From positions 244,575 through 308,574 of IMG/VR virus record IMGVR_UViG_3300032280_000442: 64,000 nucleotides of DNA; one strand, given 5' to 3'. Positions 241 through 63,706 of this stretch are shown here, one piece after another. Made by a program: the position numbers and the translations under genes. The DNA comes from a virus. Lineage: Duplodnaviria > Caudoviricetes. The notes under the pieces were generated by a model. The model ran no database searches. It was not told the DNA's origin and saw nothing but the letters and a program-made list of their open reading frames with translations. Numbering within the stretch: position 1 is the stretch's first letter; each line of letters begins with the position of its first letter.

Positions 241-243
241 AAT

Positions 244-4113: not shown

Positions 4114-4114
4114 T

Positions 4115-5026: not shown

Positions 5027-5037
5027 AATAAATTAAA

Positions 5038-5802: not shown

Positions 5803-5806
5803 AATT

Positions 5807-9602: not shown

Positions 9603-9609
9603 TTTTAAA

Positions 9610-10371: not shown

Positions 10372-10951
10372 GATTAATGGGGTGTTAAGAAACACATTGG
10401 ATAAAATCCAACAAACCTATCAAAAATATATGATAGATAAAACTGAGGGTTTAGATGACGACGAATCTTTTAAATACGAAATAACCCCACCATTAAACAG
10501 TTTAAATCTTAGAAACCATTTTAAATTTCAAAATGATGAAGAATTATTTTCATTTTTATACGAAGAATTTCCAATGGAAATATTTGGTCATTCACAATCA
10601 ACCGAATATTCTACATTCAACGACTTAAATGAAATATATTTAAATTTGAGAGATAATCACGATATACTGATAGTGTCCGATGAGATTGGTAAATCTAAAC
10701 CAGCGTCTTTGTTTTTCTTATCAAAATTTGGATGTTTGGTTGAAAAAGTAAAATTTTACAGTAATTCAACAATAAATTCGATGTGGGATGAAATAGATGT
10801 TTTACTTACATCAAACCCTGCTCTATTATTAGAACATCCGGAAGATAAATTTATCATAAAATATCAAACGGAGTACAATAAACATATCAAATCAGACAAT
10901 TCAATAACATCAATTAAAGAATTAGAATTTGAATTAACAAAAATAAAATAA
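10355..10951 (+). CDS. HAD-fold 5'(3')-nucleotidase-like protein with degenerate catalytic motif
   Basis: MRIAIEINGVLRN aligns to IxIDxDGVL; YNKH near C-terminus. Confidence 0.55.
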   Translation: MRIAIEINGVLRNTLDKIQQTYQKYMIDKTEGLDDDESFKYEITPPLNSLNLRNHFKFQNDEELFSFLYEEFPMEIFGHSQSTEYSTFNDLNEIYLNLRDNHDILIVSDEIGKSKPASLFFLSKFGCLVEKVKFYSNSTINSMWDEIDVLLTSNPALLLEHPEDKFIIKYQTEYNKHIKSDNSITSIKELEFELTKIK

Positions 10952-49062: not shown

Positions 49063-49093
49063 TTTGGATTTATCTAAAAATGTATTATCTTTG
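49063..49093 (+). promoter_or_regulatory. Bacteroidota-type sigma70 promoter of tmRNA
   Basis: TTTG (49063) - 19 nt - TATCTTTG (49086). Confidence 0.8.
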
Positions 49094-49110
49094 TGGTATC
49101 AAAATAATAA

Positions 49111-49507
49111 GGGGGTAAAATGGTATTGACTGGCATATCTACTTATTTGGGGCACGTAGTGAGAAGTTTCCTATCACTTAAATCTATGGATGACAAAATT
49201 ATAAATGGCAACATTTTAAACAAAATGGCTCTAGTAGGTCTTGTACGTCAAGACGAGCTTGTGAACGTAGCGTAAGCAAACACACATTGGGGTCGGTAGC
49301 CAAACAACCTAGCAACAGAAGGCTCTAAAAAGGTGTGGTACCTATCCGAAAAGGTACAAGTGGAGGATTAGTTCTCAGTAAACCGAACCACTCTAAAAAT
49401 AAGGGAATTGTGAAATTTCGGATTGTTAGCTCAAACAATGTCCTAAACGTGTAGTCCTGAACACTTAGGGTGAACAACACGAGGCTTCGAAGCCTCTACC
49501 TCCACCA
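49111..49507 (+). ncRNA. ssrA: tmRNA; predicted tag (A)GNILNKMALVGLVRQDELVNVA* at 49207-49275
   Basis: 5' GGGGGTAAAATGGTATTGAC; 3' GAGGC-TTCGAA-GCCTC-TACCTCC-A-CCA; G3:U acceptor pair; ATAAAT|GGC resume context; smpB adjacent. Confidence 0.93.
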
Positions 49508-49511
49508 AAAG

Positions 49512-49539
49512 AAAAACCCATCATACGATGGGTTTTTTT
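49512..49539. terminator. Intrinsic terminator after tmRNA
   Basis: AAAAACCCATC-ATAC-GATGGGTTTTTTT. Confidence 0.85.
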
Positions 49540-49540
49540 G

Positions 49541-49934
49541 TTATCAGTTCAAATGTTTATTTTTTAATCTTGTAATAAATCCTTTTTTACCGGATTTAAT
49601 TTATTTGTTAATTTATCTAATCTTGAGTCAACATTTCTGTATACGTCTCCAAACATTCTGTCAACATCATCCATTCTACCATTGAGGTATCTATTAGTTT
49701 CCGCATATAATTCGTCTGTTCTATTTATTTCATTATCAATACGACGATGAATATTATTGTCAATATCTCTAATTATTTCTTCTTGAGATTTAACCAATCT
49801 TTTTAATTTTTTGATGTCTGAATACATCCTAACCATAACTACAACCCCCAGTATCCCGAGAACCATAACCATACCTAAAAACATTCCTATAATCATAATT
49901 TCCATTTTTTAATTCGTTTATTTTGAACTGATAA
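49541..49934. repeat. 13-bp inverted repeat flanking ORF 49564..49905
   Basis: TTATCAGTTCAAA (49541-49553) / TTTGAACTGATAA (49922-49934). Confidence 0.8.
49564..49905 (-). CDS. Small membrane-anchored coiled-coil protein
   Basis: N-terminal hydrophobic helix MEIMIIGMFLGMVMVLGILGVVVMV. Confidence 0.65.
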   Translation of the reverse strand: MEIMIIGMFLGMVMVLGILGVVVMVRMYSDIKKLKRLVKSQEEIIRDIDNNIHRRIDNEINRTDELYAETNRYLNGRMDDVDRMFGDVYRNVDSRLDKLTNKLNPVKKDLLQD

Positions 49935-49956
49935 TTAAGTATAATAAAAAAAGGGA

Positions 49957-50394
49957 CTATTTCAAGTCCCTTTTCATATCTCTATCAATATCTCGAGATT
50001 TTATACTATCTCGTTTATCGTGGAGTTTCTTACCTTTGGCAAGAGCAATTTCCATCTTAACCAATCCGGTATCATTTATGAAGACACGATAAGGAATGAT
50101 GGTTGTCCCGTTGATTAACTCACTTTCCAACTTATTCAGTTCTTTTCTCTTGGCTAATAGTTTTCTATCCTTAACGGTTTCGTGGAATGAACCATAACCA
50201 TAATCGGAGATGTTCATACCCTTGATGAACAACTCACCATTATTAAAATAACAATATCCTTCAGATATGGAGACCTTCCCCTGACGGATGGACTTCACTT
50301 CTGAACCAACTAGTTGGATTCCCACAATTAGAGTTTCCAAGAATGAATATTCAAACTTGGCTTTCTTATTGACTATGTTAATTGATTTTTTCAT
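49957..50394 (-). CDS. smpB: SsrA-binding protein SmpB
   Basis: NKKAKFEY; GIQLVGSEVKSIR; RKLLAKRKE; LAKGKKLHDKR. Confidence 0.96.
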   Translation of the reverse strand: MKKSINIVNKKAKFEYSFLETLIVGIQLVGSEVKSIRQGKVSISEGYCYFNNGELFIKGMNISDYGYGSFHETVKDRKLLAKRKELNKLESELINGTTIIPYRVFINDTGLVKMEIALAKGKKLHDKRDSIKSRDIDRDMKRDLK

Positions 50395-50426
50395 ACGACA
50401 AAGATAATATAAAAATTGATATAAAC

Positions 50427-50460
50427 AAAAAAAGGTGTCACATTACTGTAACACCTTTTT
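50427..50460 (-). terminator. Intrinsic terminator of the large ncRNA
   Basis: Minus strand AAAAAGGTGTTAC-AGTAAT-GTGACACCTTTTTTT. Confidence 0.8.
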
Positions 50461-50464
50461 GGCT

Positions 50465-51305
50465 TAATACGATGAGAATACTCGTCTTAGTAAGAATCTT
50501 TAGAAGGATTATTGTTTCCCTTCGTTTCCACCACCTTTTGAGTGGTAATCCTCATTGCTAATTGGTTAGACCAATTACTCCTTAAGATAATAACTACTCT
50601 CTTACTACTCTACTCTCTTTAAACTTGCGGTCTAACTCAGGATTCGACTCCTTAGAGGTTTTTGGTAAAAATACGATTGAACTTGGGGTTCTTTCGTGCC
50701 ACGGACAGCCCGTGACTAAGGAAGCAACTTTCGTTATCACCTGACAAACACTTTTCCGTTTTTCTGTTAGTTTTTCACCTATTGAAAAGTTTGGTTTGTG
50801 TTGTGGATTTGTCCAAGTAGAGGTTTGTCTTAGGCTTCATCATCTTTTGGACGACGAAATACCAATCTACCCGGTAGAGACTCCCATCTCTCATATTTTA
50901 AGAATTCTTCGAATCAAAATCTTGGTAGATGTTTGATAAGGATAATGACAGCACCACCTGTTACTTATCTTGTCTTTCGACTTTAAGATTTCTCTCATAT
51001 TGGAACCCGTAATAATTAAGTTGGATAACCTAACTTCTTACTTGATTCCTATCACTTATTCCTATTGGAGTTCCCCCCTCAACCGAAAGACCCACATCTC
51101 CCGGTCACCCAACCACTTTCTCTAAAGCGTCGCCCTCAATACTGAAGGTCAGATGGTATGTGACTTGTATACTCGAGCTCCCTTTCAGAAGCCGCAGAAC
51201 CAATAACACTAATGATTCCACTTTATCCCGGTTTCCCGGTTTATTTAAGGATGATATACCACCCATTATCTTTTTTTACATCACCGAAGTGTGTAATGGA
51301 TAATC
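50465..51305 (-). ncRNA. Large (~840 nt) structured ncRNA, probably GOLLD family
   Basis: No ORF; own promoter and terminator; many GNRA/UUCG hairpins (CAC-TTCG-GTG, CCGG-GAAA-CCGG, GTC-GAAA-GAC, AAC-GAAA-GTT); size and tRNA-adjacent phage context match GOLLD; ends approximate. Confidence 0.65.
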
Positions 51306-51310
51306 TAAAA

Positions 51311-51378
51311 TTTCTAAGAACGTATTAGGTTTCCCTAATTTGTTTTACAAAGGTAAGTGATTTTTTTCATAAGTCAAA
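51311..51378 (-). promoter_or_regulatory. Bacteroidota promoter followed by boxB-like hairpin and boxA-like element
   Basis: TTTG (51375-78) - 19 nt - TACCTTTG (51348-55); ATTAGG-GAAA-CCTAAT (51324-39); GTTCTTAGAAA (51311-21). Confidence 0.7.
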
Positions 51379-51410
51379 CACTTTTGTAATTTTTTTTTAT
51401 TTTTTTTTAA

Positions 51411-51640
51411 TCTGTGATAAGACCTTAAGATTTACTCATTCGTAGGTCACCCATTCTGTACTACCTAAAACTCGCCTTTAACATCCGTTCTACCCAAACC
51501 ATCGTTTATTTCTTGTTAACCTCACGGTTATCTTTGAGTACCTCCTCAACTGTAATCTGATAGGGGCTCCATATTGCTCGTCATTTCTGACTCCCTATGG
51601 GGTTCTGCTGTAATAGGTCTATCTGCTATCTTATCACAGA
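51411..51640 (-). ncRNA. Unassigned ~230-nt structured RNA
   Basis: 12-bp closing helix TCTGTGATAAGA/TCTTATCACAGA; internal GTCA-GAAA-TGAC, TAACC-GTGA-GGTTA, TTGAG/CTCAA, ATAGGG/CCCTAT. Confidence 0.6.
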
Positions 51641-51651
51641 ATAATCTATTG

Positions 51652-51741
51652 TGGTATCAGGTGGGTTCGAACCACCGGCACAGAGTCTTTCGTTACTCCT
51701 GCTCTACCAAAGGAGATAAATCTCCACTGAGCTATAATACC
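51652..51741 (-). tRNA. Aberrant tRNA-like RNA (extra hairpin in D loop, 8-nt anticodon loop, no assignable anticodon)
   Basis: GGTATTA/TGATACC acceptor; GCTC/GAGC D stem; GGTGG-TTCGAAC-CCACC T arm. Confidence 0.7.
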
Positions 51742-51751
51742 ATATAAGTTA

Positions 51752-51826
51752 GTGGACGTATGCTCTACCATCTGAGCTACAGCTTTTAATCACCGGAGGG
51801 ATTTGAATCCTCGACACAACGTCCAC
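51752..51826 (-). ncRNA. Circularly permuted tRNA-like RNA (YrlA-like topology)
   Basis: GTGGACGT-TGTGTC-GAGGA-TTCAAAT-CCCTC-CGGT..GCTG-TA-GCTC-AGATGGTA-GAGC-AT-ACGTCCAC. Confidence 0.7.
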
Positions 51827-51840
51827 CTATTTTTTCAATA

Positions 51841-51896
51841 TTTTTAAGAACCTTATTTCTTTGACAAAGATAATACTTTTATTTTAATCTGTCAAA
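51841..51896 (-). promoter_or_regulatory. Bacteroidota promoter plus boxA-like element for the tRNA-like operon
   Basis: TTTG (51893-96) - 20 nt - TATCTTTG (51865-72); GTTCTTAAAAA (51841-51). Confidence 0.7.
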
Positions 51897-51917
51897 CTTT
51901 TTTTTTAATTTTTTTTG

Positions 51918-52019
51918 TAGTCAGGACAGGATTCGAACCTGTTCCGTCTTTACCATAAAGAGTCGGCCTTACCGTTACTCAACCTTGGGGAGGTGATTCC
52001 AACCAATGGACTCCTGACT
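51918..52019 (-). tRNA. tRNA-like RNA with two extra hairpins in the variable region (isotype undetermined)
   Basis: AGTCAGG/CCTGACT acceptor; ACAGG-TTCGAAT-CCTGT T arm; TCCA/TGGA D stem. Confidence 0.65.
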
Positions 52020-52035
52020 ATGTTTCGTTAATGTT

Positions 52036-52176
52036 AAAAACTGACTCAATCTTCCTAAAAAACACTAACTTCCTACTTACTCTATTATAGGCTCGGCCGT
52101 CCTCTTTTAAATATAGTTTTACCTGAAACTTCTTCGGGTTGTTGATTGACCACTCCCGCTTACTCAAGTAGTTTTT
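52036..52176 (-). ncRNA. Candidate ~140-nt structured RNA
   Basis: Closing helix AAAAACT-ACTTGA / TTGAGT-C-AGTTTTT; internal CGGG/CCCG, AGTTT/AAACT, CCTA/TAGG. Confidence 0.35.
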
Positions 52177-52429
52177 ACATACTCATCATCCAACCCATTC
52201 GGTTTTGTTCTTGATACTGAGAATAAGTACATTTTCTCATTGACTTATAATCCGGTCTCAACTTTGAATGTGTTGGGTATTTCTTCTCGTGTTCCTTTTG
52301 TTCTCTCATCACACGAGCATACGCCTCTCTTTTACTTGGAGCCCATACATCATTAAATCCACCACCAATCCAATTAAACAAATATAGGTATTCACCATTA
52401 ACACTTCTATACAATTTCTCTTTAGCCAT
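52175..52429 (-). CDS. Hypothetical protein
   Basis: ORF with TATCTTTG promoter at 52451-58 and TTTG 19 nt upstream. Confidence 0.65.
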   Translation of the reverse strand: MAKEKLYRSVNGEYLYLFNWIGGGFNDVWAPSKREAYARVMREQKEHEKKYPTHSKLRPDYKSMRKCTYSQYQEQNRMGWMMSM

Positions 52430-52532
52430 ATCTTATCCGTTTTGTGAGTACAAAGATAAGGCTTAAATTGAAACTACCAAACTTTTTTTAAAAATTTTTT
52501 TATTTTTTTTTATTACTGAAGTGAAGTAAAAC

Positions 52533-52560
52533 AAAAAACCCCTCCGAAGAGGGGTTTTTT
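52533..52560 (-). terminator. Intrinsic terminator
   Basis: Minus strand AAAAAACCCCTC-TTCG-GAGGGGTTTTTT. Confidence 0.85.
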
Positions 52561-53248
52561 ATTTTAATAGTTTTTTAATTTTTTCAATATCTTTCATTAC
52601 TCGCCTTTGTTTACTTTCATTAAGCCCAAATATTTGTTTAGCGGGTTTAGCAATTAAATTTATCATAAAATTCTGAGCATATTCTTCAGCACTTGATTGT
52701 GTAGATGTTTCACTTCCCGGTGTAAATGGTGTTATTTTACCATCACCACATTTTAATGTTCCATTATCATTTAAGAATTGTCTTATATGACCTGTTTCAA
52801 CACCAATATGTAAATGGTCGTAATCACTACCCGGAAAGTCCATAACATAACCCAAAAGTTGACCACATTCTACTTTACTACCTTGTTTAACTGTCACATC
52901 TTTTAAGTGAGTATAATACACATCTGGAAGTCCACCATCACTATCGACAGTAAATCCCGCACCAAATAAAGTTTTTCCATCTTTTTTTATTGGTGTTGGT
53001 CCATAATCAGAATATGTTTTAACTGTTCCACCTACAACAGCATATACGGGAGTTCCTATTGAGGCTTTAAAGTCCCACGCATTAGCACTTTGCCATCCTG
53101 ATTGACCTTTATGGGCACCATCGGCAGGTATTTTAACTGAATCCCCCCCTAACAAACTAGTACTTGTAGTGGACACTTCATCTAAATTTTTTATTTTAGT
53201 TTTAAATTCAGATGTGGATATTTCCAATAATTGTATTAATTTTTTCAT
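52559..53248 (-). CDS. M23-family peptidoglycan endopeptidase
   Basis: WDFKASIGTPVYAV; YYTHL; HLHIG. Confidence 0.8.
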   Translation of the reverse strand: MKKLIQLLEISTSEFKTKIKNLDEVSTTSTSLLGGDSVKIPADGAHKGQSGWQSANAWDFKASIGTPVYAVVGGTVKTYSDYGPTPIKKDGKTLFGAGFTVDSDGGLPDVYYTHLKDVTVKQGSKVECGQLLGYVMDFPGSDYDHLHIGVETGHIRQFLNDNGTLKCGDGKITPFTPGSETSTQSSAEEYAQNFMINLIAKPAKQIFGLNESKQRRVMKDIEKIKKLLK

Positions 53249-53249
53249 A

Positions 53250-53855
53250 TTATTGTTCTAAATGGTTCATTAAAACACCACCAATAGATGTTGATTGGAC
53301 TATTAGACTAGTAATTGTCTCATCATTAAGTTTTATTTTTTTCTTTGTATAATCAATACCTAACATTCCAATAAATCTACCTTCAATACATTTTATTGCA
53401 AAAAGATAACCTGATTTACAACCAGTATCTTCCGCAATATATTTTAAACCATATGTTGCAATTGTTTCATCTTTAAAATCTGAAATTTCAATTTTATCTC
53501 TTTCAAATAATTGGTTGATTGAACGGCTGAATAAATTAACGGGTATATTGTGAAAATTCCCCTGTATTGAAGATACGGATGGAGCAACTGATTCATATAT
53601 AATACTGAATTTTGCCATTGATTTCCCGGTTGGATAAAAGTTACCCCCGTTATGAAATTGTGCCACCCAAACTCTATCTGCTTTAAATTCGTCTTTAATA
53701 TGGTCTAATTTGGTCATTACAAGTTCACTAACTTTTAATGTTTCCAATACCATATCCGGTTTCTCTACTTTTTTTTCTAATTTATTCTTAATAAATAATA
53801 CTAAAAGAGGACCTAATACCCCCGTGATAAACGCAACAATTATTGATACCGTCAT
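53250..53855 (-). CDS. Single-TM protein with GAF-like domain (T4 holin T-like)
   Basis: N-terminal TM helix; ADRVWVAQFHNG; FIGMLGIDY. Confidence 0.5.
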   Translation of the reverse strand: MTVSIIVAFITGVLGPLLVLFIKNKLEKKVEKPDMVLETLKVSELVMTKLDHIKDEFKADRVWVAQFHNGGNFYPTGKSMAKFSIIYESVAPSVSSIQGNFHNIPVNLFSRSINQLFERDKIEISDFKDETIATYGLKYIAEDTGCKSGYLFAIKCIEGRFIGMLGIDYTKKKIKLNDETITSLIVQSTSIGGVLMNHLEQ

Positions 53856-53860
53856 AATCT

Positions 53861-54412
53861 TTATCTTAAATTACCAAAGTTTTTTAAGAATTGTTCCTTA
53901 GTTATTTGTAATTTTTGACCACTTTTAGTTCTAACCACCATTATTTCAGGTTTTTTAGGTGTGGATTCAACAATTTTTTTCTTTGGAAGTTCAGCAACTT
54001 TGGGTTTATGTGTTTCAACTATTTTAACTTTTGGTTCCTCAATAATTGGTTCTTCTTGTTGAAAAACCTCAACAGTTAATCTTGGTTTTTCTTCTTGTTC
54101 TTGTTCAGAAACAACCACATTAACTTTTTTGTTTGTTTTTACACCAAAGTCAGAACTCCAAGGCTCAAAATAGACATCGTCGGCAATGACCTCTAATCTC
54201 ATATTACCTTTTGTTCCTTCAGGTAAAAAATGTTTAGTTTTTGGGATATTTACTTCACACACTCCTGTATTTTCAATAGCACCATTAAACATATAAGACA
54301 TTTCATCTGTCTCAATTACTAATCTTACTTTAGATTTCGCTAAAGAAGTTCCTTCAATTTGTATATTACAATTGAATTTATTCGGTTTGTCTGTATATAA
54401 AAAGTAACTCAT
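53861..54412 (-). CDS. Hypothetical virion-associated protein
   Basis: RLEVIADDVYFEPW; TATTTATA upstream. Confidence 0.55.
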   Translation of the reverse strand: MSYFLYTDKPNKFNCNIQIEGTSLAKSKVRLVIETDEMSYMFNGAIENTGVCEVNIPKTKHFLPEGTKGNMRLEVIADDVYFEPWSSDFGVKTNKKVNVVVSEQEQEEKPRLTVEVFQQEEPIIEEPKVKIVETHKPKVAELPKKKIVESTPKKPEIMVVRTKSGQKLQITKEQFLKNFGNLR

Positions 54413-54426
54413 AACTTATAAATATC

Positions 54427-54753
54427 TTAATCTTTTATATTTGTCACATCAACTTTAATATTTTTCTGTTCTTTCATTAATACTTCCACATCTTTTAGCT
54501 TTACAGTGACTTTATTATTCTTAGTTTTATTAACTTTTGTTTCAAAAACAATCTCATCAACATCTAATCTTACAAATAATCCAATTAAGGTTGCAACTTC
54601 GTCTTGCCTTAATTCTTTCATTTTTTTACGAATTCTTGGACCAATACCCCCTGCAGCAATAATTTTCTGTATAACGCACCCTTCTTTCCACGTAAATGGT
54701 GTGTCCATCCACGCGAAAGGTGTATCATTCCAAGAGTAACAAATGCTTCCCAT
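54427..54753 (-). CDS. Hypothetical protein
   Basis: WNDTPFAWMDTPFTW repeat; divergent late motif. Confidence 0.55.
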   Translation of the reverse strand: MGSICYSWNDTPFAWMDTPFTWKEGCVIQKIIAAGGIGPRIRKKMKELRQDEVATLIGLFVRLDVDEIVFETKVNKTKNNKVTVKLKDVEVLMKEQKNIKVDVTNIKD

Positions 54754-54755
54754 AC

Positions 54756-54767
54756 TATTTATAAATA
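54756..54767. promoter_or_regulatory. Palindromic TATTTATAAATA, putative back-to-back late promoter
   Basis: Gives TATTTATA on the sense strand of both divergent genes. Confidence 0.55.
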
Positions 54768-54791
54768 ACTAAAAATTTGTAAAATTGTAGT

Positions 54792-56375
54792 ATGTCTGAT
54801 ATTTCTAGTCAATTAATTAAGGATTCTTATAATTATGTCCTCCAATCTGACCTTTCAACCGGTGTTGTGTACCGTATAGGAGGGGATATTCCCGTTAACC
54901 CAATATTTTCATCAGGATTAACAATTAACGAGAATTTTAACTTTTCAAATGGAACTGAACAAAGTGGATATATATTAATATCAGATGGTTCAGGTAACGC
55001 TAATTGGGGTCCTGTTTCAGGTGATTATTTATCATTAAGTGGGGGAACCGTTACTGGTCCAACAATATTTACAAGTGGTTTAACTGCAAATACAATATCT
55101 GCAACAACATATTATAATTTACCTAATGACGTATTTGTCACCGGAGGAACTTATAATAATGGTAGTGCGACATTTACAAATAATTCAGGAGGAACATTTA
55201 CGGTAACAGGATTTAGTACAAGTACAGGGACATCATTTACCGGAGGGACTGTTTCAGGGGCAACAAATTTTACAGATGGATTAAGTGCTAACACAATATC
55301 TGCAACAACATATCAGAATTTACCACAAGACATTTTTGTTACCGGAGGAACTTATAATAACGGAGATGCCACATTTACAAATAATTCAGGAGGAACATTT
55401 ACGGTAACAGGATTTGCTGTTGGTGGAGGTGGGGGTCAAACATTTTATTTAAATTTATCTCAATCACAAGGTGGAAATAGATTATTAAGTACAACCGGTA
55501 GCACCGCATCTGAACAAACAAGTGGTGTAACTATTAGTAATGGAGTGACAAGTACTATTGCGTCTTTTCAATCACAACCACTAAATATAACATTATTACC
55601 GGGAGGTGTATGGGGTTTTTATTTACATTCATATAAACAAAATAATAACGCTAGTTTTAATATATTTGTTGAAGTTTATAAGAGAACAAGTGGTGGTACC
55701 CAAACACTCTTATTTACAACAGACCCGGCACCTGTAACTACTAATTCACCTAATCCGTCAATGCAACTTAGTGATGGTTATTTTAGTGGAACACCATTAT
55801 CGGTTAGTGATAGTATAGTTGCAGTAGTTAGAGCGACTAATACAGGTAACCAATCACGTATAATAACTTTGGTTACTGAAGGTTCACAACATTATTCATA
55901 TGCGGTTTCAACGATACCAACACAACAAGGATTAACTTGCGATACATTAAGTGGATGTAGTATCATTCAAACAATTCAAACCGATGTATCAAATAAGTTA
56001 GATAAAAGTGGTGGAACTATAACAGGTGATTTAATTATTAATTCAGGTTTAACCGCAAATACAATTTCCGCAACAACGTATCTTAACTTACCCGCATCAT
56101 CTGTAAAATCAATAAATTCTGTGTCGGGTAACACAAATGCCGGAAACAATCAAAATACCGATTACATATATTTTGCAACAAACACAATTACAATAACACT
56201 TCCAACGGCAATCAGTAACATCAATTCATATGTAATTAAAAATGTTGGAACCGGTACAATTACAATAAACACAACATCATCTCAAACAATAGATGGAAGT
56301 TTAACCGCATTAATAAAAGTACAATATTTATCATTAACATTAATTAGCGATGGTGCTAATTGGAACATTATATAA
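54792..56375 (+). CDS. Tail fibre-like protein with internal repeats
   Basis: GLTANTISATTY and GGTV motifs three times; Gly/Thr/Ser-rich; C-terminal TITLPTA...QTIDG...LISDGANW. Confidence 0.7.
   Translation: MSDISSQLIKDSYNYVLQSDLSTGVVYRIGGDIPVNPIFSSGLTINENFNFSNGTEQSGYILISDGSGNANWGPVSGDYLSLSGGTVTGPTIFTSGLTANTISATTYYNLPNDVFVTGGTYNNGSATFTNNSGGTFTVTGFSTSTGTSFTGGTVSGATNFTDGLSANTISATTYQNLPQDIFVTGGTYNNGDATFTNNSGGTFTVTGFAVGGGGGQTFYLNLSQSQGGNRLLSTTGSTASEQTSGVTISNGVTSTIASFQSQPLNITLLPGGVWGFYLHSYKQNNNASFNIFVEVYKRTSGGTQTLLFTTDPAPVTTNSPNPSMQLSDGYFSGTPLSVSDSIVAVVRATNTGNQSRIITLVTEGSQHYSYAVSTIPTQQGLTCDTLSGCSIIQTIQTDVSNKLDKSGGTITGDLIINSGLTANTISATTYLNLPASSVKSINSVSGNTNAGNNQNTDYIYFATNTITITLPTAISNINSYVIKNVGTGTITINTTSSQTIDGSLTALIKVQYLSLTLISDGANWNII
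55092..55415 (+). repeat. Tandem 201-bp (67-codon) duplication within fibre gene
   Basis: ACAATATCTGCAACAACATAT at 55092/55293; 45-bp identity at 55170/55371. Confidence 0.8.
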
Positions 56376-56377
56376 TT

Positions 56378-56728
56378 ATGGCATATACACCTATATCTCC
56401 GGCATTAACATTTCATCTCGTATCATCAACAGGTACGAATGCAACTAACATTAAATCAAGTTCAGGAACAGTTAATGGATGGTACATTTATAATTCAACA
56501 ACAGGAATAAGAAAAGTCGCCTTTCATAATAACGCGGGTACACCAACTGCCGGTACAGGAGTTGTATATTCTTTAGTTATACCACCATTAGCCGCTGCCA
56601 ACGTTTCATTTCCTGATGGTATAAATTTTACAACAGGTATTGCAATAACCACAACAACAGGACTTGCAGATTCAGATACTAATGGAGTTCAAACAAATGA
56701 TTTAATAATTAACATATTTTATAAATAA
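56378..56728 (+). CDS. Small virion/fibre-associated protein
   Basis: MAYTPIS... FPDGINFTTGIAI; ATG 56378 preferred. Confidence 0.55.
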   Translation: MAYTPISPALTFHLVSSTGTNATNIKSSSGTVNGWYIYNSTTGIRKVAFHNNAGTPTAGTGVVYSLVIPPLAAANVSFPDGINFTTGIAITTTTGLADSDTNGVQTNDLIINIFYK

Positions 56729-56729
56729 A

Positions 56730-57038
56730 ATGAAAATACAAGAAACACAATCAGTAAAAATACCATTAACCGGTATGGTAAATAATTTGGAGATAATTGT
56801 TAACTCATTTTCTCTATTCCCAACTTCAATAGAAGTGATTTGGAAATTAACCGGAACATTTACAATAAAAGAAGGAACATTAACAATCCCTAATGATATA
56901 GTATCTTCTTGGGGTACAGATGACACAATAATTAAAGATTATGTGTTGGAACAACTAGGTTTAGTTGAGGATTTAACACCCGAACCTGTTATTGAAAAAC
57001 CTATTATACCAATAATAGACGAAGAACCTATAATATAA
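56730..57038 (+). CDS. Putative tail fibre assembly/chaperone protein
   Basis: SWGTDDTIIKDYVLEQLGL; position among fibre genes. Confidence 0.45.
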   Translation: MKIQETQSVKIPLTGMVNNLEIIVNSFSLFPTSIEVIWKLTGTFTIKEGTLTIPNDIVSSWGTDDTIIKDYVLEQLGLVEDLTPEPVIEKPIIPIIDEEPII

Positions 57039-57044
57039 TAATCT

Positions 57045-58955
57045 ATGGCAGTAAAGTATTGGTATGTCGCAAATAACGGTAATGGTCTTTGGGCTGCTAC
57101 TGCAAATTGGTACTTTGGACCAGGAGGTACCGGAGGGATTGCAGGAATACCAACTTCTTCTGACGATGCAATAGTTGATGAAAATTCAGGTAGTGGTACA
57201 TTAACTATTGGGGGTACATCATCTTGTTCAAGTTTAGACGTATCCAATTTCAACGGAACAGTGGCAGGAGCAGGTGCGTTGAATATTACAACCAAATCGG
57301 TAGATAGTATCCCTATTTTATATTTGGGGGGAACTTGGAATTACACAGGAACAATATCATTTTTGGGGGTCGCGATATCTGGATGGATTTATGGAAATGG
57401 AAGAACTCACAGAGGAAATGTTACTGTCAATGCCCCATCTGGTACTTTTGCTTTTGAGGGTGATTGGATTTCAACAGGTTTATTTTTACTTACTTCAGGT
57501 ACCGTAATAGGATATTATATATCCTTTGGTGCAATGTCTTTATCAAATTCAAACACCAGAAGATTTGACTGTTATATTTTAGGTTTATCAGGTACAGGGA
57601 CTATTTTAAGTGTTACAACTCAAACTAATTTAACTTGGTCTGTTAGCGAGATATATTTAACAAGTGTGTTATCAATAGCAAAAGTCGTTTCACTCTCTAA
57701 TTTGGTTTGTTGTGATATCCTATACCTACAAGGGGCAGGTGCGAGTACAACAACAATTACTGCAGGAGCAACCTCACTTATAAAACCTCAAGTGTATATT
57801 CAAAAATTAGACGGTACCGTAACTTTTGGAACAAGTACCGTTTCTTATCTCGAATTTACAGAAGGGTCCGCAATTACTTGGGCAGGAACTGCGGTTATGA
57901 CCATACTTTACGATTTAATTTTATGTAATTCAATGAGTGTAACTTTTTCTAGTTCACTTAATTTTACCGAAGGTGGTACTTTTCGTACATTTAATAAACA
58001 ATTTACAGGAAACCTTACTGTTAGTTCATTTGCATCTTTAGATGTGTTTGGAGATTATAACTCAACATCTGTATCAACTTCGGCAATAAATTTATCAACA
58101 GGTGGTAATGTGCTTTTTTACGGAAATGTTTCTGTTGGAGGGACTATTATTATCGGACCAAATAATGCGTATCTTTTTAATTATCAAACATTAACTTGTA
58201 CTCGTATATCATTAACTGGAGGTATATTATTTATAGGTGGTGACGTTAATGTTAGTACTGTTGCCATATCCAATAGTGAGATTACAGTACTACCAGCAGG
58301 ACCATATACATACAATAGTGTGGTAATTGGTGTACTGTCAGGTAAACCAATAATTAATATTAGCACAAGCCTTTTAGGTTCGGGAGGAACATTTAGGTCG
58401 GTTAATTTAGGGAATTCTACAGTTAATTTAAATGGTAGTTCAGGTACATTGTGGAGTTTAACAAATGACGGTAATTTAGCTGTTGGAGGAGGAGATTATA
58501 CTATAAATATAACAGACAAATCGGGTGGATACGTAAATTTTAATGCTAGTGCTGGAGGAATAACTTACAATCGACTTGTTTTAGATAGAGGTGGTTTTGA
58601 CCCGCATACAGAGATTCAAGGTGCTGGAACATATAATCAATTTGTAAGTCTCACAACTGTTTTCAGTCAAATATTTTTTGATTCGGGTCAAACTGTTTAT
58701 TTTAATAGACCACCTGAGTTTGGAAATTGGTCAACTTATACAAATGTAGCTTCAACATCTACATCAAATGTGACTTTCGTATTAAGTTCTGAAAACTCTA
58801 ACCCTATTGTAATATCAAACAATCTTTATATAGCTGAAATCACCGCATTACCAATAAATACTTGGTATGCAATAAATTCTTTCTCAAATGGAGGTGACTT
58901 AAATTTTATTTATCAAATGCCCCCAAGAAGATTGGGTGTTGGTGGTGCAGGATAA
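57045..58955 (+). CDS. Beta-helix tail spike/adhesin-like protein
   Basis: YWYV..G.W....NW....GG...IPTSSDDAIVDENSG N-terminus; Gly/Thr/Ser-rich beta repeats. Confidence 0.6.
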   Translation: MAVKYWYVANNGNGLWAATANWYFGPGGTGGIAGIPTSSDDAIVDENSGSGTLTIGGTSSCSSLDVSNFNGTVAGAGALNITTKSVDSIPILYLGGTWNYTGTISFLGVAISGWIYGNGRTHRGNVTVNAPSGTFAFEGDWISTGLFLLTSGTVIGYYISFGAMSLSNSNTRRFDCYILGLSGTGTILSVTTQTNLTWSVSEIYLTSVLSIAKVVSLSNLVCCDILYLQGAGASTTTITAGATSLIKPQVYIQKLDGTVTFGTSTVSYLEFTEGSAITWAGTAVMTILYDLILCNSMSVTFSSSLNFTEGGTFRTFNKQFTGNLTVSSFASLDVFGDYNSTSVSTSAINLSTGGNVLFYGNVSVGGTIIIGPNNAYLFNYQTLTCTRISLTGGILFIGGDVNVSTVAISNSEITVLPAGPYTYNSVVIGVLSGKPIINISTSLLGSGGTFRSVNLGNSTVNLNGSSGTLWSLTNDGNLAVGGGDYTINITDKSGGYVNFNASAGGITYNRLVLDRGGFDPHTEIQGAGTYNQFVSLTTVFSQIFFDSGQTVYFNRPPEFGNWSTYTNVASTSTSNVTFVLSSENSNPIVISNNLYIAEITALPINTWYAINSFSNGGDLNFIYQMPPRRLGVGGAG

Positions 58956-58983
58956 AAAAAAGTGAGGTGTTACCCCCACTTTT

Positions 58984-60009
58984 TTACAACTTTTTGAATT
59001 CCGGTCTAATTAAATTCCATATAATTTCAGAATAATCTTTTTTATCAAACATTCTGAATAGAATCCCTGACATATGTTTAGGTTGAGTTGATACCCACTC
59101 AGCAAACTCTTTTCTATCAGTGATAGGTTCTTGGTCGTTATATTTCCCATACATTTTATAGTCAAACTTTTTACCAACATCTTCAGATATTTGAAAGTAA
59201 TAATATTTTAATTCTTTGATGTAGTTTTCAATTTTTTTGTAGAACTCATCCGGAACATCTTTTAATAGTTCCATAACATCCTCACCATTTTTCAAATACT
59301 CCCAAATACCGGTTGTGGTTACGTTGGTCATTATTTTATGAAGACGAAGATACTCCACCCCCTTAACTTTGATTCTATCTCCGTTGGAGAACTTCACTAC
59401 GAACCCTTCTTGGTCGTTTTTAACCATTTCTTTAAGTTGTTTGTAGTCTTTGATACCGTCATATTTTTTAACCACGTCAAACCCCCATTGTGACCAAATT
59501 GAGGAATCGGTTTCTTTTCCGTTCTTATCAAAGGTTCCCAATAAAACTAGTTTTTCATCAGTACCATAATCCAAAACAATTCTATTTTCCGGATAGATGA
59601 TTTCAAAGCAGAAAGTCAGATGTCTGAACATTATGTCAGTATTATATTTTCTTAAGATTTCTCTTGCTTTGTTTGCTTGGTCTGAGGTGAATGAACCACG
59701 AGTGGCAACCACCCATTGACCTCGATACCAAAATACGATACCCAATGAACCGTCCATTTTTTCATAAACCTCAAACTTTTCGGTTGGTTCAAATTTACCT
59801 TCTTCTATGTTGAAGAACTTTTGGAATGGAGTTGCAACTATATCTCCGGTGTCGTCGGTAACTAAACCTCTACACATAAGAGTCACCTCATCCCACAGGT
59901 TTTCGTACTGAACTTTTTCAGTATAATTCCATATGGTTAATGGAAGTGATGGATGTACTTGTTTGTAAAGTAATCCGTCTTCGTAATATTTGTTTAGTTT
60001 TTCTAACAT
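58984..60009 (-). CDS. RNA ligase (T4 Rnl1-like)
   Basis: KFFN; YEKMDGSLG (motif I); FEII; EGFVV; RIKVK. Confidence 0.9.
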   Translation of the reverse strand: MLEKLNKYYEDGLLYKQVHPSLPLTIWNYTEKVQYENLWDEVTLMCRGLVTDDTGDIVATPFQKFFNIEEGKFEPTEKFEVYEKMDGSLGIVFWYRGQWVVATRGSFTSDQANKAREILRKYNTDIMFRHLTFCFEIIYPENRIVLDYGTDEKLVLLGTFDKNGKETDSSIWSQWGFDVVKKYDGIKDYKQLKEMVKNDQEGFVVKFSNGDRIKVKGVEYLRLHKIMTNVTTTGIWEYLKNGEDVMELLKDVPDEFYKKIENYIKELKYYYFQISEDVGKKFDYKMYGKYNDQEPITDRKEFAEWVSTQPKHMSGILFRMFDKKDYSEIIWNLIRPEFKKL

Positions 60010-60019
60010 AATTTTTTAA

Positions 60020-60403
60020 TTAAAGTTTCATCTCGAAACGATTTTTCATTATTTCCAATTTATCTTCCGGAACCCCGTGTTCATTAACTCCTCCGTGTCT
60101 GTTTTCAACAATTAAAGAGTAAACTCTATATCCGTGTTTTTCAGCCAAGTCAAAGTATGGTTGCATTTCCCACTCTTGTGTAAATGTGTTTGACACCACA
60201 ACTTTTTTGTTTTTATTTTCCATAAAAACTCTTACAGCATTTTGACACCAATTGTGAGCATCTTTTAATTTGGTAACGTCAAATTCATACTTACCTTCAT
60301 AGGTAAAGTATTTATCCGCTTCCATATGCGACCCCCCTAATGATTCAGCCAACGTTGATTTACCACTTCCGGGTAATCCTCTTAATAAAAATAATTCTTT
60401 CAT
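60020..60403 (-). CDS. P-loop polynucleotide kinase-like protein
   Basis: LLRGLPGSGKST; EADKYF; VSNTF; HGVP. Confidence 0.8.
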   Translation of the reverse strand: MKELFLLRGLPGSGKSTLAESLGGSHMEADKYFTYEGKYEFDVTKLKDAHNWCQNAVRVFMENKNKKVVVSNTFTQEWEMQPYFDLAEKHGYRVYSLIVENRHGGVNEHGVPEDKLEIMKNRFEMKL

Positions 60404-60404
60404 A

Positions 60405-60608
60405 TTATTTAATGTATTGTCGTTTAAATTTTGTTTGTTTCTCGTTTAATATAATAATGTATTTTTTCCCGGATTTGGTTTTATAAACCTGAAATCTCAT
60501 CGTATCAATATAATGCCATTCATCAGTATATGAATGTTCATAGATTCTTTTTTCAACATTACAAGACACTAAACCAAAGAATAATAATAGTAAAATTAAT
60601 TTTTTCAT
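60405..60608 (-). CDS. Small lipoprotein
   Basis: MKKLILLLLFFGLVSC lipobox. Confidence 0.6.
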   Translation of the reverse strand: MKKLILLLLFFGLVSCNVEKRIYEHSYTDEWHYIDTMRFQVYKTKSGKKYIIILNEKQTKFKRQYIK

Positions 60609-60898
60609 TATACTTCACACTCTTTTAAATGTTTAACAATTTTTTCAATACCTTCAACGTCATCAGGATTGATAATAAACTCATCAAAGGCACCATATCT
60701 TGATTGATACCCAAAAATATATTTCAAACCATAACCAACTCTTTGCCAAAATGGTCGTTTAACCAAATGTGTGTGAATATAAACCATTGGATATGTTATT
60801 CCGTCAATTTCATCCTCAGAATACATTACCACCATTTGATGTTCCGTGTTATGACAGGAACACACAAATAAATCTTTTTTTGTTTGTTTAATTCTCAT
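60608..60898 (-). CDS. Hypothetical protein
   Basis: CSCHNTEH motif; coupled ORF. Confidence 0.6.
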   Translation of the reverse strand: MRIKQTKKDLFVCSCHNTEHQMVVMYSEDEIDGITYPMVYIHTHLVKRPFWQRVGYGLKYIFGYQSRYGAFDEFIINPDDVEGIEKIVKHLKECEV

Positions 60899-60899
60899 A

Positions 60900-61562
60900 T
60901 TACTTTCTTTTTTTACCGTCTTCAGTTATTACCTCATCTATGTGGTGGTCAAATAACATATCTGACACAATCTCACGTTTATCCATCATTCTTATGACAT
61001 CGTCCATATCATAAACACCAAAATTTGGATTACCATCAATCCCAACATCCATTTTTTTACCTTTACCAAATCTTAAATTTGTTGGAAGGTGTACGTGTCC
61101 GTGAAGGTGGATGTGACCTTTATTTAAACCATCCCACGACGCAATCGGGAAATGACATAACACAAATGTTTTGAATTTATAAGTTAATCTTGTGTAGTGA
61201 TTAACACTTGAGAATAATTCTTGAATGTTATCTCTATTTTTTTCAATATGTTCGTCGTGATTACCTAATATAAGGTGTATCTCTTTACACACAATTCTAT
61301 CTCTAAAAACTTTTATATTTTCAAAACCACCAAAACTCCAATCACCCAAGTGAATCAAAACATCGTCTTGACCAACAACACTATTAATGTTATTCACAAT
61401 AACTTCGTTCATTTGTTCAATCGTGTTGAAATCTCGGGTTTGGTCTATTGGAATACTCCCGTCAGGTAATCTCCACCCGGTTACACCACGACATATATTT
61501 TTATGTCCGTAGTGTGTGTCGGAGATTATCCATACCTTCCTATCTTTATCTATCTTAATCAT
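60900..61562 (-). CDS. Calcineurin-like metallophosphoesterase
   Basis: SDTH; HLGD; GNHD; HGHVH. Confidence 0.9.
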   Translation of the reverse strand: MIKIDKDRKVWIISDTHYGHKNICRGVTGWRLPDGSIPIDQTRDFNTIEQMNEVIVNNINSVVGQDDVLIHLGDWSFGGFENIKVFRDRIVCKEIHLILGNHDEHIEKNRDNIQELFSSVNHYTRLTYKFKTFVLCHFPIASWDGLNKGHIHLHGHVHLPTNLRFGKGKKMDVGIDGNPNFGVYDMDDVIRMMDKREIVSDMLFDHHIDEVITEDGKKRK

Positions 61563-62052
61563 ACTGCAAATCTAATTCTTTTTTTCCAAACCAAAATGGT
61601 TTTTCTCTGTTTTTCCAAGAAGCTAAATCACTTTTGGCTCCCATATAATAATTTCTATAAGATTCCACAACAGAATCTACCTTAAACTCATCCGGCATTG
61701 CTCTCGCCGGAGTAGTAAAACCAATGTCCGGAATGTTTGGTTTGTTTATAATACACCAATTAATCACATCTATTGATTTGTGTCTTTTACCATACCTGTA
61801 GGTATATTCTTTTCCAAGTTCCAACCCCAACTCACACAAATACAAATAGTTTGATAAACTCTCACGAGCCCAAATAGCACAAGGGTGATTCTTATGTGAT
61901 AACTTGTACGGTACTTGGTCGGTAGCTTGGTCGGTTACGTGGTGAACACCACATAACAACTGAGCCGTTTCCAAAATCATTTTAACTACGTGTTTATCTA
62001 CGTGGTATTTTGCCGACAACGTCGGATTCTCATCTAAGAAAAATATATTCAT
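61555..62052 (-). CDS. Pyrimidine-dimer DNA glycosylase-like protein
   Basis: MNIFFLD...HVDKHVVKMILETAQLL; HKNHPC; YRNYY. Confidence 0.75.
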   Translation of the reverse strand: MNIFFLDENPTLSAKYHVDKHVVKMILETAQLLCGVHHVTDQATDQVPYKLSHKNHPCAIWARESLSNYLYLCELGLELGKEYTYRYGKRHKSIDVINWCIINKPNIPDIGFTTPARAMPDEFKVDSVVESYRNYYMGAKSDLASWKNREKPFWFGKKELDLQYD

Positions 62053-62501
62053 TATACGTGTGGTATTTGGACTCTAACACAAGTTTGTGCTTGACCCTCG
62101 TTCATATAAAAATTGTTTAAATATCCCATTATGTTTGCACTACCAATTGGATTTGCTGAATGAACATATACAATTGGAAACACAAATTTATCCGCCTTTC
62201 TCTCACTTCTACTCATATTGAATCTACCCTCATTTGTATTGTGAAATAAAGCAACCAAGAACTTAGCTGCGTCATATCCGGTTTTTTCTTCAATATTGTT
62301 GTAATCCAAAGTATAATTTGGAGAAACATTATCGAAGTATTCTTTCATTGCAGTATCACCCAAATCGTGGTCCAATGATATAATATCAATTTTACCCAAC
62401 CCAACTTCATTAACTTTACTAACGAATTCATCATAATTTCTTACAACAATCCAATTATCTCCGATTGGAGTTCTTACGTCATCTAAATAAATTCTACACA
62501 T
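62052..62501 (-). CDS. Cyclic-phosphate-processing receiver-like domain protein
   Basis: IYLDDVR; ISLDHDLG; TGYD; VHSANPIG; start 62501 lies downstream of TATCTTTG promoter at 62519-26. Confidence 0.75.
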   Translation of the reverse strand: MCRIYLDDVRTPIGDNWIVVRNYDEFVSKVNEVGLGKIDIISLDHDLGDTAMKEYFDNVSPNYTLDYNNIEEKTGYDAAKFLVALFHNTNEGRFNMSRSERKADKFVFPIVYVHSANPIGSANIMGYLNNFYMNEGQAQTCVRVQIPHV

Positions 62502-62603
62502 ACCTATTAATTTTGATACAAAGATAGTCAAATTTTTAATATAAAAAAATCCATCACGAAAAAATGATGGATTTAATTTGAAACCTTGTTATTAGTTTAT
62601 TTT

Positions 62604-63464
62604 TTAGAATTTGTTCCCACAAGAAGAACAAAATTTATCGGAATCCTTTTTTCTTTTTTTTCCACAGTTAGTACAATATACTTTTAGGTCTTGTTTCTCA
62701 TATACCTTTTGTGACATAGGAAGAATCTTCCATACTGAACTTGCACAAGTGTGATGATTAAAAGTTTTATCTACAGTTTTGAAAGATTGGTCAGATGAAC
62801 CACCTTTTTCAACTCTACCGGTTTCAATAGAGTCCATAGATAACATATCCATAGTAACCTCACTACGAGAATTACCTTTAGATTTTTTTAATCTTGATGT
62901 GGCACTTCGTAAGTTTGGACCAGCAAAAGTGTTACTCATTGATGTGGTATTAAAATTAACACCTGCAGTATTACTTGATGATATAAATGACACATTATTA
63001 CTTAATGTTGTATTAACATATCCACCTGAAATAGTATTGGTGTTGTAAGTGTTACAAGTCGGTATACCAAATGAACCAGCAACATAAGTTATAGGGTTAT
63101 TCCACACCGGTTGTTTATATTCATCAAAGAAGTCAATAACAACATCCCCATTTCCTGAGATGGCATCCAATACCTCATTTGATGTGCCGTCAACTTCATA
63201 AGTTTCAAACTTAAATTTACGAGCGTCGTCAAGGTATCTCTCAAGAAATACTCTTTGTCCCGGTTTAAGAACAATTCCTCCTCCGGAAATATAACTTCCG
63301 TCAAGTTTGATTTTTGCTAATACTGTGGTTGATGATGGGTTAAATAATTCTAGTTCGAATTCTTCCCCGTTGTTTAGATAGACAGTTTGTCCAAATTGTT
63401 TAAGACGTTTTCTGTCTTTTGAGATGTACGCACAAGGCGTACCTGTTTTTGTTTGGTAATACAT
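62604..63464 (-). CDS. Hypothetical protein with C-terminal zinc ribbon
   Basis: CTNCG...FCSSCG; VFLERYLD. Confidence 0.7.
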   Translation of the reverse strand: MYYQTKTGTPCAYISKDRKRLKQFGQTVYLNNGEEFELELFNPSSTTVLAKIKLDGSYISGGGIVLKPGQRVFLERYLDDARKFKFETYEVDGTSNEVLDAISGNGDVVIDFFDEYKQPVWNNPITYVAGSFGIPTCNTYNTNTISGGYVNTTLSNNVSFISSSNTAGVNFNTTSMSNTFAGPNLRSATSRLKKSKGNSRSEVTMDMLSMDSIETGRVEKGGSSDQSFKTVDKTFNHHTCASSVWKILPMSQKVYEKQDLKVYCTNCGKKRKKDSDKFCSSCGNKF

Positions 63465-63633
63465 AATTTCCTTATTTTATTTTTATGTTTATTGAACTTC
63501 ACTTCGTTGGTATCATTTCCAACTCAAATGCCTCTGTGGACACGTGAACCTCAGCAACAAGGTTTCAGTAATAAATATAAGGTGTTTTATTTTGTTGTAA
63601 ATAAAAACCTCCAAGTTTCCTTGAAGGTTATTG

Positions 63634-63706
63634 TGGTCCCGGAGAATTACGATATCCCGACTTCTACATTATGAGTGTAGCACTCTGACCTCTGAGTTAC
63701 GAGACC
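63634..63706 (-). tRNA. tRNA with CAT anticodon (elongator Met or Ile2), atypical T loop, CCA not encoded
   Basis: GGTCTCG/CGGGACC; ACTC/GAGT; CTACA-CTCATAA-TGTAG; T loop ATCGTAA. Confidence 0.8.

Follow-up and report, generated by a model that had tools for sequence, protein, structure and literature searches.

The 64,000-nucleotide stretch analyzed here (the window) corresponded to positions 244,575 to 308,574 of IMG/VR virus record IMGVR_UViG_3300032280_000442, i.e., the last 64 kb of a complete lake phage genome with a length of 308,574 bp, direct terminal repeats, and a G+C content of 31.5%. Its region from 49111 to 63706 was probably part of the RNA/translation island in a ~309-kb phage whose promoters were of the Bacteroidota type, and this island would be built of independent modules: a non-coding RNA operon (containing small RNAs E1 to E5 and the large RNA GOLLD), smpB plus the transfer-messenger RNA (tmRNA) gene, an RNA repair operon, and 19 tRNAs. 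The presence of GOLLD near tRNAs, phage tmRNA and SmpB, T4-type repair, and small RNAs in phage tRNA regions were already known; what appeared new were conserved, putatively non-decoding tRNA-shaped RNAs (E2, E3, and E4) predicted to be co-transcribed with GOLLD, together with a hypervariable scaffold family to which E2 would belong.

Predicted nested non-coding RNA operon and its relatives

The Bacteroidota promoter consensus is TTTG...TAnnTTTG. The motif TTTG-N18-21-TAYNTTTG had seven matches in the window versus 1.65 expected (0/100 shuffles reached seven), and five of the seven fell within 49063-52481; the whole 308-kb genome contained 38 matches, with the densest cluster around the RNA array (Table 1). 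Minus-strand terminator-like sites were located only at 52552, 50460, 49975, and 49537; since the terminator scan found none on this strand between 52481 and 50460, and a single one between P1 and smpB, transcripts from P1, P2, and P3 would all end at the hairpin behind GOLLD. The boxA-like sequences after P2 and P3 were kept in relatives (the likeness was one of sequence), and the stem of the P3 leader hairpin covaried among them.

The relatives were collected through an SmpB search, which gave 79 viral loci. The order GOLLD–smpB–tmRNA was the same in ~40 loci with SmpB identity of at least 70%, and loci with SmpB identity below 60% had neither GOLLD nor tmRNA nearby. E1 to E5 were present in 14-29 loci, and the relatives displayed at least 20 cassette architectures on one backbone: ORF84 (an 84-aa open reading frame [ORF]), E1, one to four scaffold RNAs, E3, E4, further cassettes, GOLLD, smpB, and tmRNA. 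Five further cassettes occurred after E4: a second permuted tRNA-like RNA, three other small RNAs, and E5 in a long or a short form. The three other small RNAs, lying between E4 and GOLLD, measured ~140 nt, ~75 nt, and ~65 nt, the last of them forming a unit that had a separate promoter; they were carried by L002:2783-3110, L009, L014, L030, L031, and L045, and none reached the Rfam gathering threshold in L030, the one locus scanned. Every locus found to carry E3 or E4 also had GOLLD, and ~15 loci had GOLLD, smpB, and tmRNA with none of E1 to E5.

E4 displayed a cloverleaf with a 7-bp acceptor stem, a D arm with GG, and a T arm with a UUCRA loop. Standard pairs made up 97.4% of its cells, with 10 pairs having double changes among 18 distinct sequences, and its D-loop hairpin insert was retained via G-C/G-U/A-U changes; slid-partner controls gave 41-51% for E4 and 27-63% across E4 and E3. 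The 'anticodon arm' of E4 was composed of a stem of 5 bp, two bases left unpaired, a Y-R pair that covaried (CG 13, UA 3, and UG 1), and a GAAA loop, and it represented a GNRA-capped hairpin in place of an anticodon loop; the E4 version in L022 had 7 bp plus a GGAA loop. The ARAGORN call 'tRNA-Thr(GGT)' for E4 was rejected as an artefact, the relatives' copies being called Thr, Pro, or '???'. Outside the clade, model R2 mainly retrieved ordinary tRNAs in the search for E4-like RNAs; one GNRA-type look-alike (L187:3234-3308; 75 nt; ACGGAAAA loop) from an unrelated viral contig had an E4-type arm without the D-loop insert.

E3 contained D and T arms only, in the order terminal helix, T arm, closed acceptor-like hairpin, and D arm; it had no free acceptor end, and the RNA ends fell where the anticodon loop would be. 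Pairing was found in 92.1% of its cells, with five pairs having double changes among 10 distinct sequences, and three terminal helix types were present. The bacterial Y RNA YrlA combines a permuted tRNA-like domain with a GNCGAAN0-1G motif close to its 5′ terminus (Chen et al. 2014, PMC4201824), and its gene lies no more than a few kb from a Ro60/Rsr gene. E3 shared with the tRNA-like domain of YrlA the permuted order of T arm, closed acceptor, and D arm inside a terminal helix. Unlike YrlA, E3 scored 30.1 bits against RF02553 (below the gathering score of 69) and had no GNCGAAN0-1G Ro-binding motif in its 5′ leader and 5′ strand, and no Ro60/Rsr (TROVE, PF05731) match, nor RtcB, was found in the complete 308-kb genome; E3 thus resembled the YrlA tRNA-like domain but was not a family member. 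Model R1 gave only low-scoring matches to E3-like RNAs outside the clade, most of the folded ones being two neighbouring ordinary tRNAs. The second permuted tRNA-like type, absent from the window, was located directly after E4 in L003:4043-4137, L010, L013, L019, L021, L024, and L049, and it had the T arm GUUGG-UUCGAUU-CCAAC, a longer closed acceptor hairpin, and a model R1 score of 39 bits.

The 3′ end of E1 lay 0-3 nt from a scaffold tRNA-like RNA in every array, and the E1 consensus fold had two covarying pairs. A 49-aa ORF overlapping E1 was rejected, and E1 was read as non-coding, because indels in relatives disrupted the frame. A gap of 10 nt separated the end of E3 from E4, which was closely followed by E5 or other cassettes; E5 had a short form of ~120 nt in relatives, which lacked the central domain.

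GOLLD in the window was composed of a variable 5′ domain of ~430 nt and a conserved 3′ domain (50469-50874). Nine relatives' copies scored 273-308 bits; both halves were conserved in ~40 loci, and the 5′ half was conserved only inside the clade. Known GOLLD RNAs adjoin tRNA islands and form RNA-only cages, and env-38 GOLLD is a 14-mer nanocage by cryo-EM (Kretsch et al., 10.1101/2024.12.08.627333); the same paper suggests tRNAs as possible cargo and cites a ribosome pull-down of GOLLD. It resembled known GOLLD in the full-length match to the conserved 3′ domain, the variable 5′ domain, the phage-borne location, and the nearby tRNA genes, but it differed in being the last RNA of a predicted nested three-promoter operon with boxA-like leaders, preceded by apparently non-decoding tRNA-shaped RNAs and followed by smpB plus tmRNA; GOLLD in other phages was surrounded by ordinary tRNAs. 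GOLLD has been without an assigned function since 2009, a gap that the cage structure did not close; its fixed setting in this clade (rRNA-style leaders, non-decoding tRNA-shaped RNAs predicted to be co-transcribed, and an adjacent phage ribosome-rescue pair) is unusually informative, pointing toward the ribosome and the tRNA machinery as the place to search for it. An unannotated GOLLD of 207 bits was also found at L221:8006-8389 (PX050566.1, cultured Acinetobacter phage vB_AciJM_313), occupying a 1-kb gap between tRNA-Pro and tRNA-Gln, and this phage could be an experimental GOLLD system.

Table 1. Coordinates of features in the window
Feature	Position	Strand	Basis or remark
Promoter P1, Bacteroidota type, TTTG..TATCTTTG	52451-52481	-	motif search
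84-aa protein gene, first in the array	52175-52429	-	17/16/59 variable sites per codon position (15 relatives)
E1, non-coding RNA, ~150 nt	52020-52172	-	conserved, in 24 loci
E2, tRNA-shaped RNA, 102 nt	51918-52019	-	scaffold-family member
Promoter P2	51865-51896	-	motif search; followed by boxA-like GGTTCTTAAAAA at 51841-51852
E3, circularly permuted tRNA-like RNA	51750-51828	-	covariation; weak RF02553 match
E4, tRNA-shaped RNA	51652-51741	-	RF00005, 39.6 bits; covariation
E5, RNA, ~230 nt	51411-51640	-	closed by a 13-bp helix (z = -2.5)
Promoter P3 plus leader	51311-51378	-	motif match at 51348; GAAA-capped hairpin 51324-51339; boxA-like CGTTCTTAGAAA 51311-51322
GOLLD RNA, ~840 nt	50465-51305	-	RF02032, 307.7 bits versus threshold 150; E 3.7e-87; model 1-416 of 416
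Intrinsic terminator behind GOLLD	50429-50460	-	terminator scan
smpB promoter	50399-50429	-	motif search
smpB, 145 aa	49957-50394	-	PF01668, E 1.6e-47; own promoter; terminator 49948-49975
113-aa ORF between smpB and tmRNA	49564-49905	-	weak family matches only
tmRNA	49111-49507	+	RF00023, 45.6 bits versus gathering score 47
tmRNA promoter	49063-49093	+	motif search
Heal-and-seal operon	58984-62531	-	four enzyme/domain genes plus small ORFs
cREC protein	62052-62531	-	domain search
Calcineurin-type phosphoesterase	60900-61562	-	Metallophos, phrog_547
P-loop kinase	60020-60403	-	AAA_33, phrog_505
Rnl1 ligase	58984-60009	-	PF09511, E 1.2e-18; phrog_562, E 3.6e-67
tRNA(CAU)	63634-63706	-	RF00005, 49.5 bits; opens the 19-tRNA array

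An earlier reading of the same DNA by a model (the original prediction) had proposed three tandem host-type promoters driving a nearly protein-free RNA array, then smpB and tmRNA, with a repair operon 7 kb away. All three promoter matches were recovered on the minus strand, precisely where proposed (52451, 51865, and 51348), and the RNA order E1, E2, E3, E4, E5, and ~840-nt RNA was present as proposed; nearly all of the described features were also kept in ~40 related contigs. Covariance models identified the ~840-nt RNA as GOLLD and matched E4 and tmRNA with the scores listed in Table 1. The remainder needed amendment: (i) the array held its six RNAs but began with the conserved 84-aa gene; (ii) smpB and tmRNA were both real but had their own promoters and lay outside the three-promoter unit, with tmRNA on the plus strand and convergent with the array; and (iii) the repair operon was real, at a distance of 6.5 kb to the first promoter and of 8.6 kb to smpB. 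The view that the tRNA-like RNAs keep D/T elbow elements and have no normal anticodon loop was borne out for E2, E3, and E4, with the arms of E3 in permuted order, and their reading as non-decoding RNAs was supported; the paired cells of E4 and E3, compared with the slid controls, showed in addition that these RNAs are under selection.

The tRNA-scaffold family of E2

E2 had the 7-bp acceptor stem AGUCAGG/CCUGACU, A73, a canonical T arm with a UUCRA loop, and a short D arm (UCC/GGA) with GG, while a multi-hairpin body replaced the anticodon and variable arms and left no conserved 7-nt loop. Compensatory changes were found in its D stem (by eye) and in a body hairpin. The E2-type acceptor, A73, and T arm recurred in relatives around different 73-145-nt middles, with one to four copies per phage. 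The 23-nt 3′ end of this scaffold was found in more than 120 viral contigs (among the matches listed) and in 19 contigs of metagenome-assembled genomes with mixed, mostly Bacteroidota labels, where none of the matches was a canonical tRNA; these 19 contigs were probably phage DNA. A total of 188 distinct scaffold elements were obtained (60-197 nt, at least 150 body clusters, and up to six copies per contig; e.g., L002:1052-1816, L014:2453-3188, L109, L115, and L098), and their ends were identical. Most members had the D arm UGGCGGAAU(U)GGUAGACGC, some had no D arm at all, and in some, long D-loop inserts were the sole departure from a body that was identical elsewhere. Across 150 clusters, k-mer enrichment yielded only a weak TATGGT as a motif shared by the bodies, and this signal was probably leftover D-loop sequence; an anti-Shine-Dalgarno-like AUCACCUCC in E2 was dropped as not enriched, and the ARAGORN anticodon calls for scaffold RNAs were rejected as inconsistent.

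No canonical bacterial tRNA with the scaffold 23-nt 3′ end was found among 185,579 species' genomes, so the scaffold would copy no host tRNA over that stretch. The family was not found in Rfam 15 or in the literature searched, and it was apparently large and undescribed. Scaffold RNAs also occurred within ordinary tRNA arrays of other phages, and outside the set of sampled relatives GOLLD or SmpB accompanied them in only two fetched stretches, both from the window clade. A pure spacer or punctuation role fits the geometry, yet it does not account for scaffold RNAs that stand up to four in a row or that lie among tRNAs able to be processed by themselves, which argues that these RNAs are more than spacers.

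Ponchon and Dardel reportedly engineered tRNA scaffolds for RNA expression. The phage RNAs resemble such scaffolds in that acceptor, T, and D arms are retained and the anticodon arm is swapped for structured RNA, but they are natural, and their inserts are of at least 150 different kinds. The combination of a single invariant tRNA top half with at least 150 unrelated inserts, in more than 120 of the viral contigs listed, suggests routine phage use of the tRNA fold as a carrier, and if the inserts bind host factors, they would represent a large untapped set of natural RNA effectors.

Proposed independent modules and rival explanations

Under the explanation that we consider probable, module 1 (52481-50429, minus strand) would be a nested non-coding RNA operon with three host-type promoters, two of them with boxA-like leaders, and one terminator behind GOLLD. 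RNase P, RNase Z, and the CCA-adding enzyme of the host would act at E2 and E4, which have intact acceptor and T arms; cleavage would free E1, E3, E5, and GOLLD as separate stable RNAs, and E2 and E4 would remain as nuclease-resistant scaffolds that display a module other than an anticodon (GNRA hairpin, D-loop hairpin, or multi-hairpin body). Function would reside in these displayed modules and not in decoding, with targets probably in the translation/tRNA machinery, and the tRNA shape would give both processing and stability. The idea of processing tags for the large RNAs, also raised in the original prediction, fits this layout, in which no terminator interrupts 52481-50460 and tRNA-shaped modules abut other RNAs. 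Module 2 would be a self-contained trans-translation pair, each gene having its own promoter, that adds a 21-22-residue tag; module 3 would be a T4-like heal-and-seal RNA repair operon, and module 4 would comprise nineteen ordinary tRNAs. We propose that the co-location of these modules reflects a cellular process on which all of them act, and not their assembly into one machine. In T4, the tRNA gene region likewise gives rise to small stable RNAs other than tRNAs, namely RNAC and RNAD, whose role is unknown (PMC3014915), but the RNAs described here had no sequence relation to them and comprised many cassette types on shared tRNA scaffolds. Several points weigh against the modular explanation: the transcription and processing of the array are predictions from the DNA sequence, and cleavage by RNase P and RNase Z is predicted from RNA shape; the targets of the displayed modules are putative; E1, E5, and the scaffold bodies varied too little within type for strong covariation or firm structures; and the GOLLD–smpB–tmRNA order was kept in ~40 loci, so a functional link of the three is possible.

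That the tRNA-like elements are functionless, decaying tRNA pseudogenes is hardly conceivable: tools disagreed on the elements and anticodons were missing, but every helix of E3 and E4 was kept by compensatory changes, the ends were identical in 188 distinct scaffold elements, and conservation extended through cassette reshuffling, which identical scaffold bodies survived. The elements were thus conserved, and decay is excluded because of the covariation. The original prediction had joined the parts into a single integrated counter-defence system, in which tRNA-like RNAs act as decoys or sponges, tmRNA/SmpB provides rescue, and the repair operon reseals cut tRNAs; we regard this as unlikely. 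T4-type Pnkp/Rnl1 repair is an established answer to the anticodon nuclease PrrC, and the phage has analogous enzymes. Anticodon nucleases recognise the anticodon loop, however, and because E2, E3, and E4 lack this feature, the decoy idea is weakened in its anticodon-nuclease form; a decoy for factors reading the acceptor end or the elbow is possible. Evasion of tRNA-targeting defences by means of phage tRNAs has been described (PMC10264068, PMC11555353), as have defences cutting the tRNA 3′ tail (PMC12851939); the invariant acceptor/T arm of the scaffold could bait such a 3′-tail-cutting effector. The parts lay within 15 kb in the window and within 4-7 kb in four of five relatives, but Rnl1 was 78 kb from smpB in one complete relative; E3 had no free acceptor end, the scaffold 23-nt 3′ end matched no canonical bacterial tRNA, the cassettes assorted independently, and scaffold RNAs mostly occurred without GOLLD, SmpB, or the same neighbours. 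An integrated system would be important if true, its support so far being gene neighbourhood; since the parts are linked by nothing but proximity, cassette orders number at least 20, and scaffold RNAs occur elsewhere, this claim was not upheld.

It is also improbable that the small RNAs dock to a GOLLD nanocage via the GNRA loop or displayed hairpins and are enclosed or presented there, perhaps acting at ribosomes. GNRA tetraloops are a classic tertiary-docking element, and one was conserved in E4; moreover, E3 and E4 were restricted to GOLLD-bearing loci, and the small RNAs are predicted to be co-transcribed with GOLLD from nested promoters. Proposals of tRNAs as GOLLD cargo, with the ribosome pull-down, point the same way (10.1101/2024.12.08.627333), but the ~15 loci with GOLLD, smpB, and tmRNA lacked all of E1 to E5, GOLLD of other phages sat among ordinary tRNAs, and no receptor or complementary site was identified. 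Less probable still is the charging of AGUCAGG scaffold RNAs with leucine by leucyl-tRNA synthetase (LeuRS), whereby they would never decode and would serve as amino-acid donors or LeuRS/EF-Tu sinks. Larkin and co-workers are said to have reported in 2002 in Nucleic Acids Research that bacterial LeuRS ignores the anticodon and charges tRNA-Leu without the anticodon and variable arms. The D arm of most members presumably matches that of E. coli tRNA-Leu, and A73 is the discriminator; against this, E2 had a different, shorter D arm, some family members had none, and there is no known use for such a molecule. A broader conjecture has some chance of being right, albeit a doubtful one: the AGUCAGG/CCUGACU-A73 RNAs, E2 among them, would be a widespread undescribed natural class of tRNA-scaffolded phage RNAs. 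One specific host or phage factor (e.g., LeuRS or an effector attacking the acceptor end) would read their fixed acceptor/T-arm handle, this handle would display hundreds of interchangeable structured inserts, and in the window clade the RNAs would cooperate with E3, E4, and a GOLLD cage in reprogramming or protecting host translation.

Protein genes, tmRNA, and tRNA array

The 84-aa ORF was a real conserved coding gene, as judged from the codon positions of its variable sites. Its product matched no Pfam or PHROG family and fell only in virus-only anonymous clusters of Atlas; its AlphaFold model had a predicted local distance difference test (pLDDT) score of 79, and Foldseek against PDB gave nothing below E = 2.6.

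Residues 7-145 of SmpB aligned to positions 2-142 of 143 of PF01668, and the C-terminal tail with its DKR motif, ...HDKRDSIKSRD..., was read by eye in the translation; by these features the SmpB is judged genuine. The tmRNA likewise reads as real: its homologues in seven relatives scored 62-85 bits, above the gathering threshold, and ARAGORN, which missed the window copy, detected tmRNA in three relatives. Huge phages carry tmRNA and SmpB genes (Al-Shayeb et al. 2020, PMC7162821), and the window resembled them in its complete pair, with a tmRNA whose two ends were GGGGGUA...UACCUCCACCA and which had a G3:U70 acceptor pair, a CCA end, an internal resume codon, and a tag frame; unlike known tmRNAs, the window copy had a T loop of 6 nt. 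Its tag was 22 codons long (GNILNKMALVGLVRQDELVNVA), and a tag frame of 21-22 codons was kept, with synonymous changes, in 29 distinct relatives' tmRNAs. A usual bacterial tmRNA tag has about 10 residues and an -LAA end, whereas the tag of 21-22 residues was conserved as protein, GN[IV]L[ND]KM..[VI]GL[VI]R..., and ended in -VA; other phage contigs in the sample had tags of 23-27 residues ending in -AVAA.

The heal-and-seal operon appeared to hold a complete T4-type set, i.e., an Rnl1-family ligase plus predicted 5′-kinase and 3′-phosphoesterase. It resembled T4 Pnkp plus Rnl1 repair in having kinase, phosphoesterase, and Rnl1-type ligase in one operon, but, unlike in T4 Pnkp, the kinase and the calcineurin-type phosphoesterase were separate proteins, and a cREC-domain protein was added.

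An ARAGORN run on the genome detected 18 ordinary tRNA genes on the same strand at genome positions 167-10404; together with tRNA(CAU), they would form one 19-tRNA array spanning the genome ends, which places the RNA cluster inside a larger translation/RNA island. The tRNA(CAU) had an aberrant T arm with mismatches (GGAUA-UCGUAAU-UCUCC) and was missed by ARAGORN despite its Rfam score. The phage tRNA-Leu genes UAA and UAG (genome positions 167-240 and 484-557, minus strand) were each only 74 nt and had no long variable arm, which is unusual for bacterial-type tRNA-Leu; Acinetobacter phage vB_AciJM_313 lists 73-nt tRNA-Leu genes, too.

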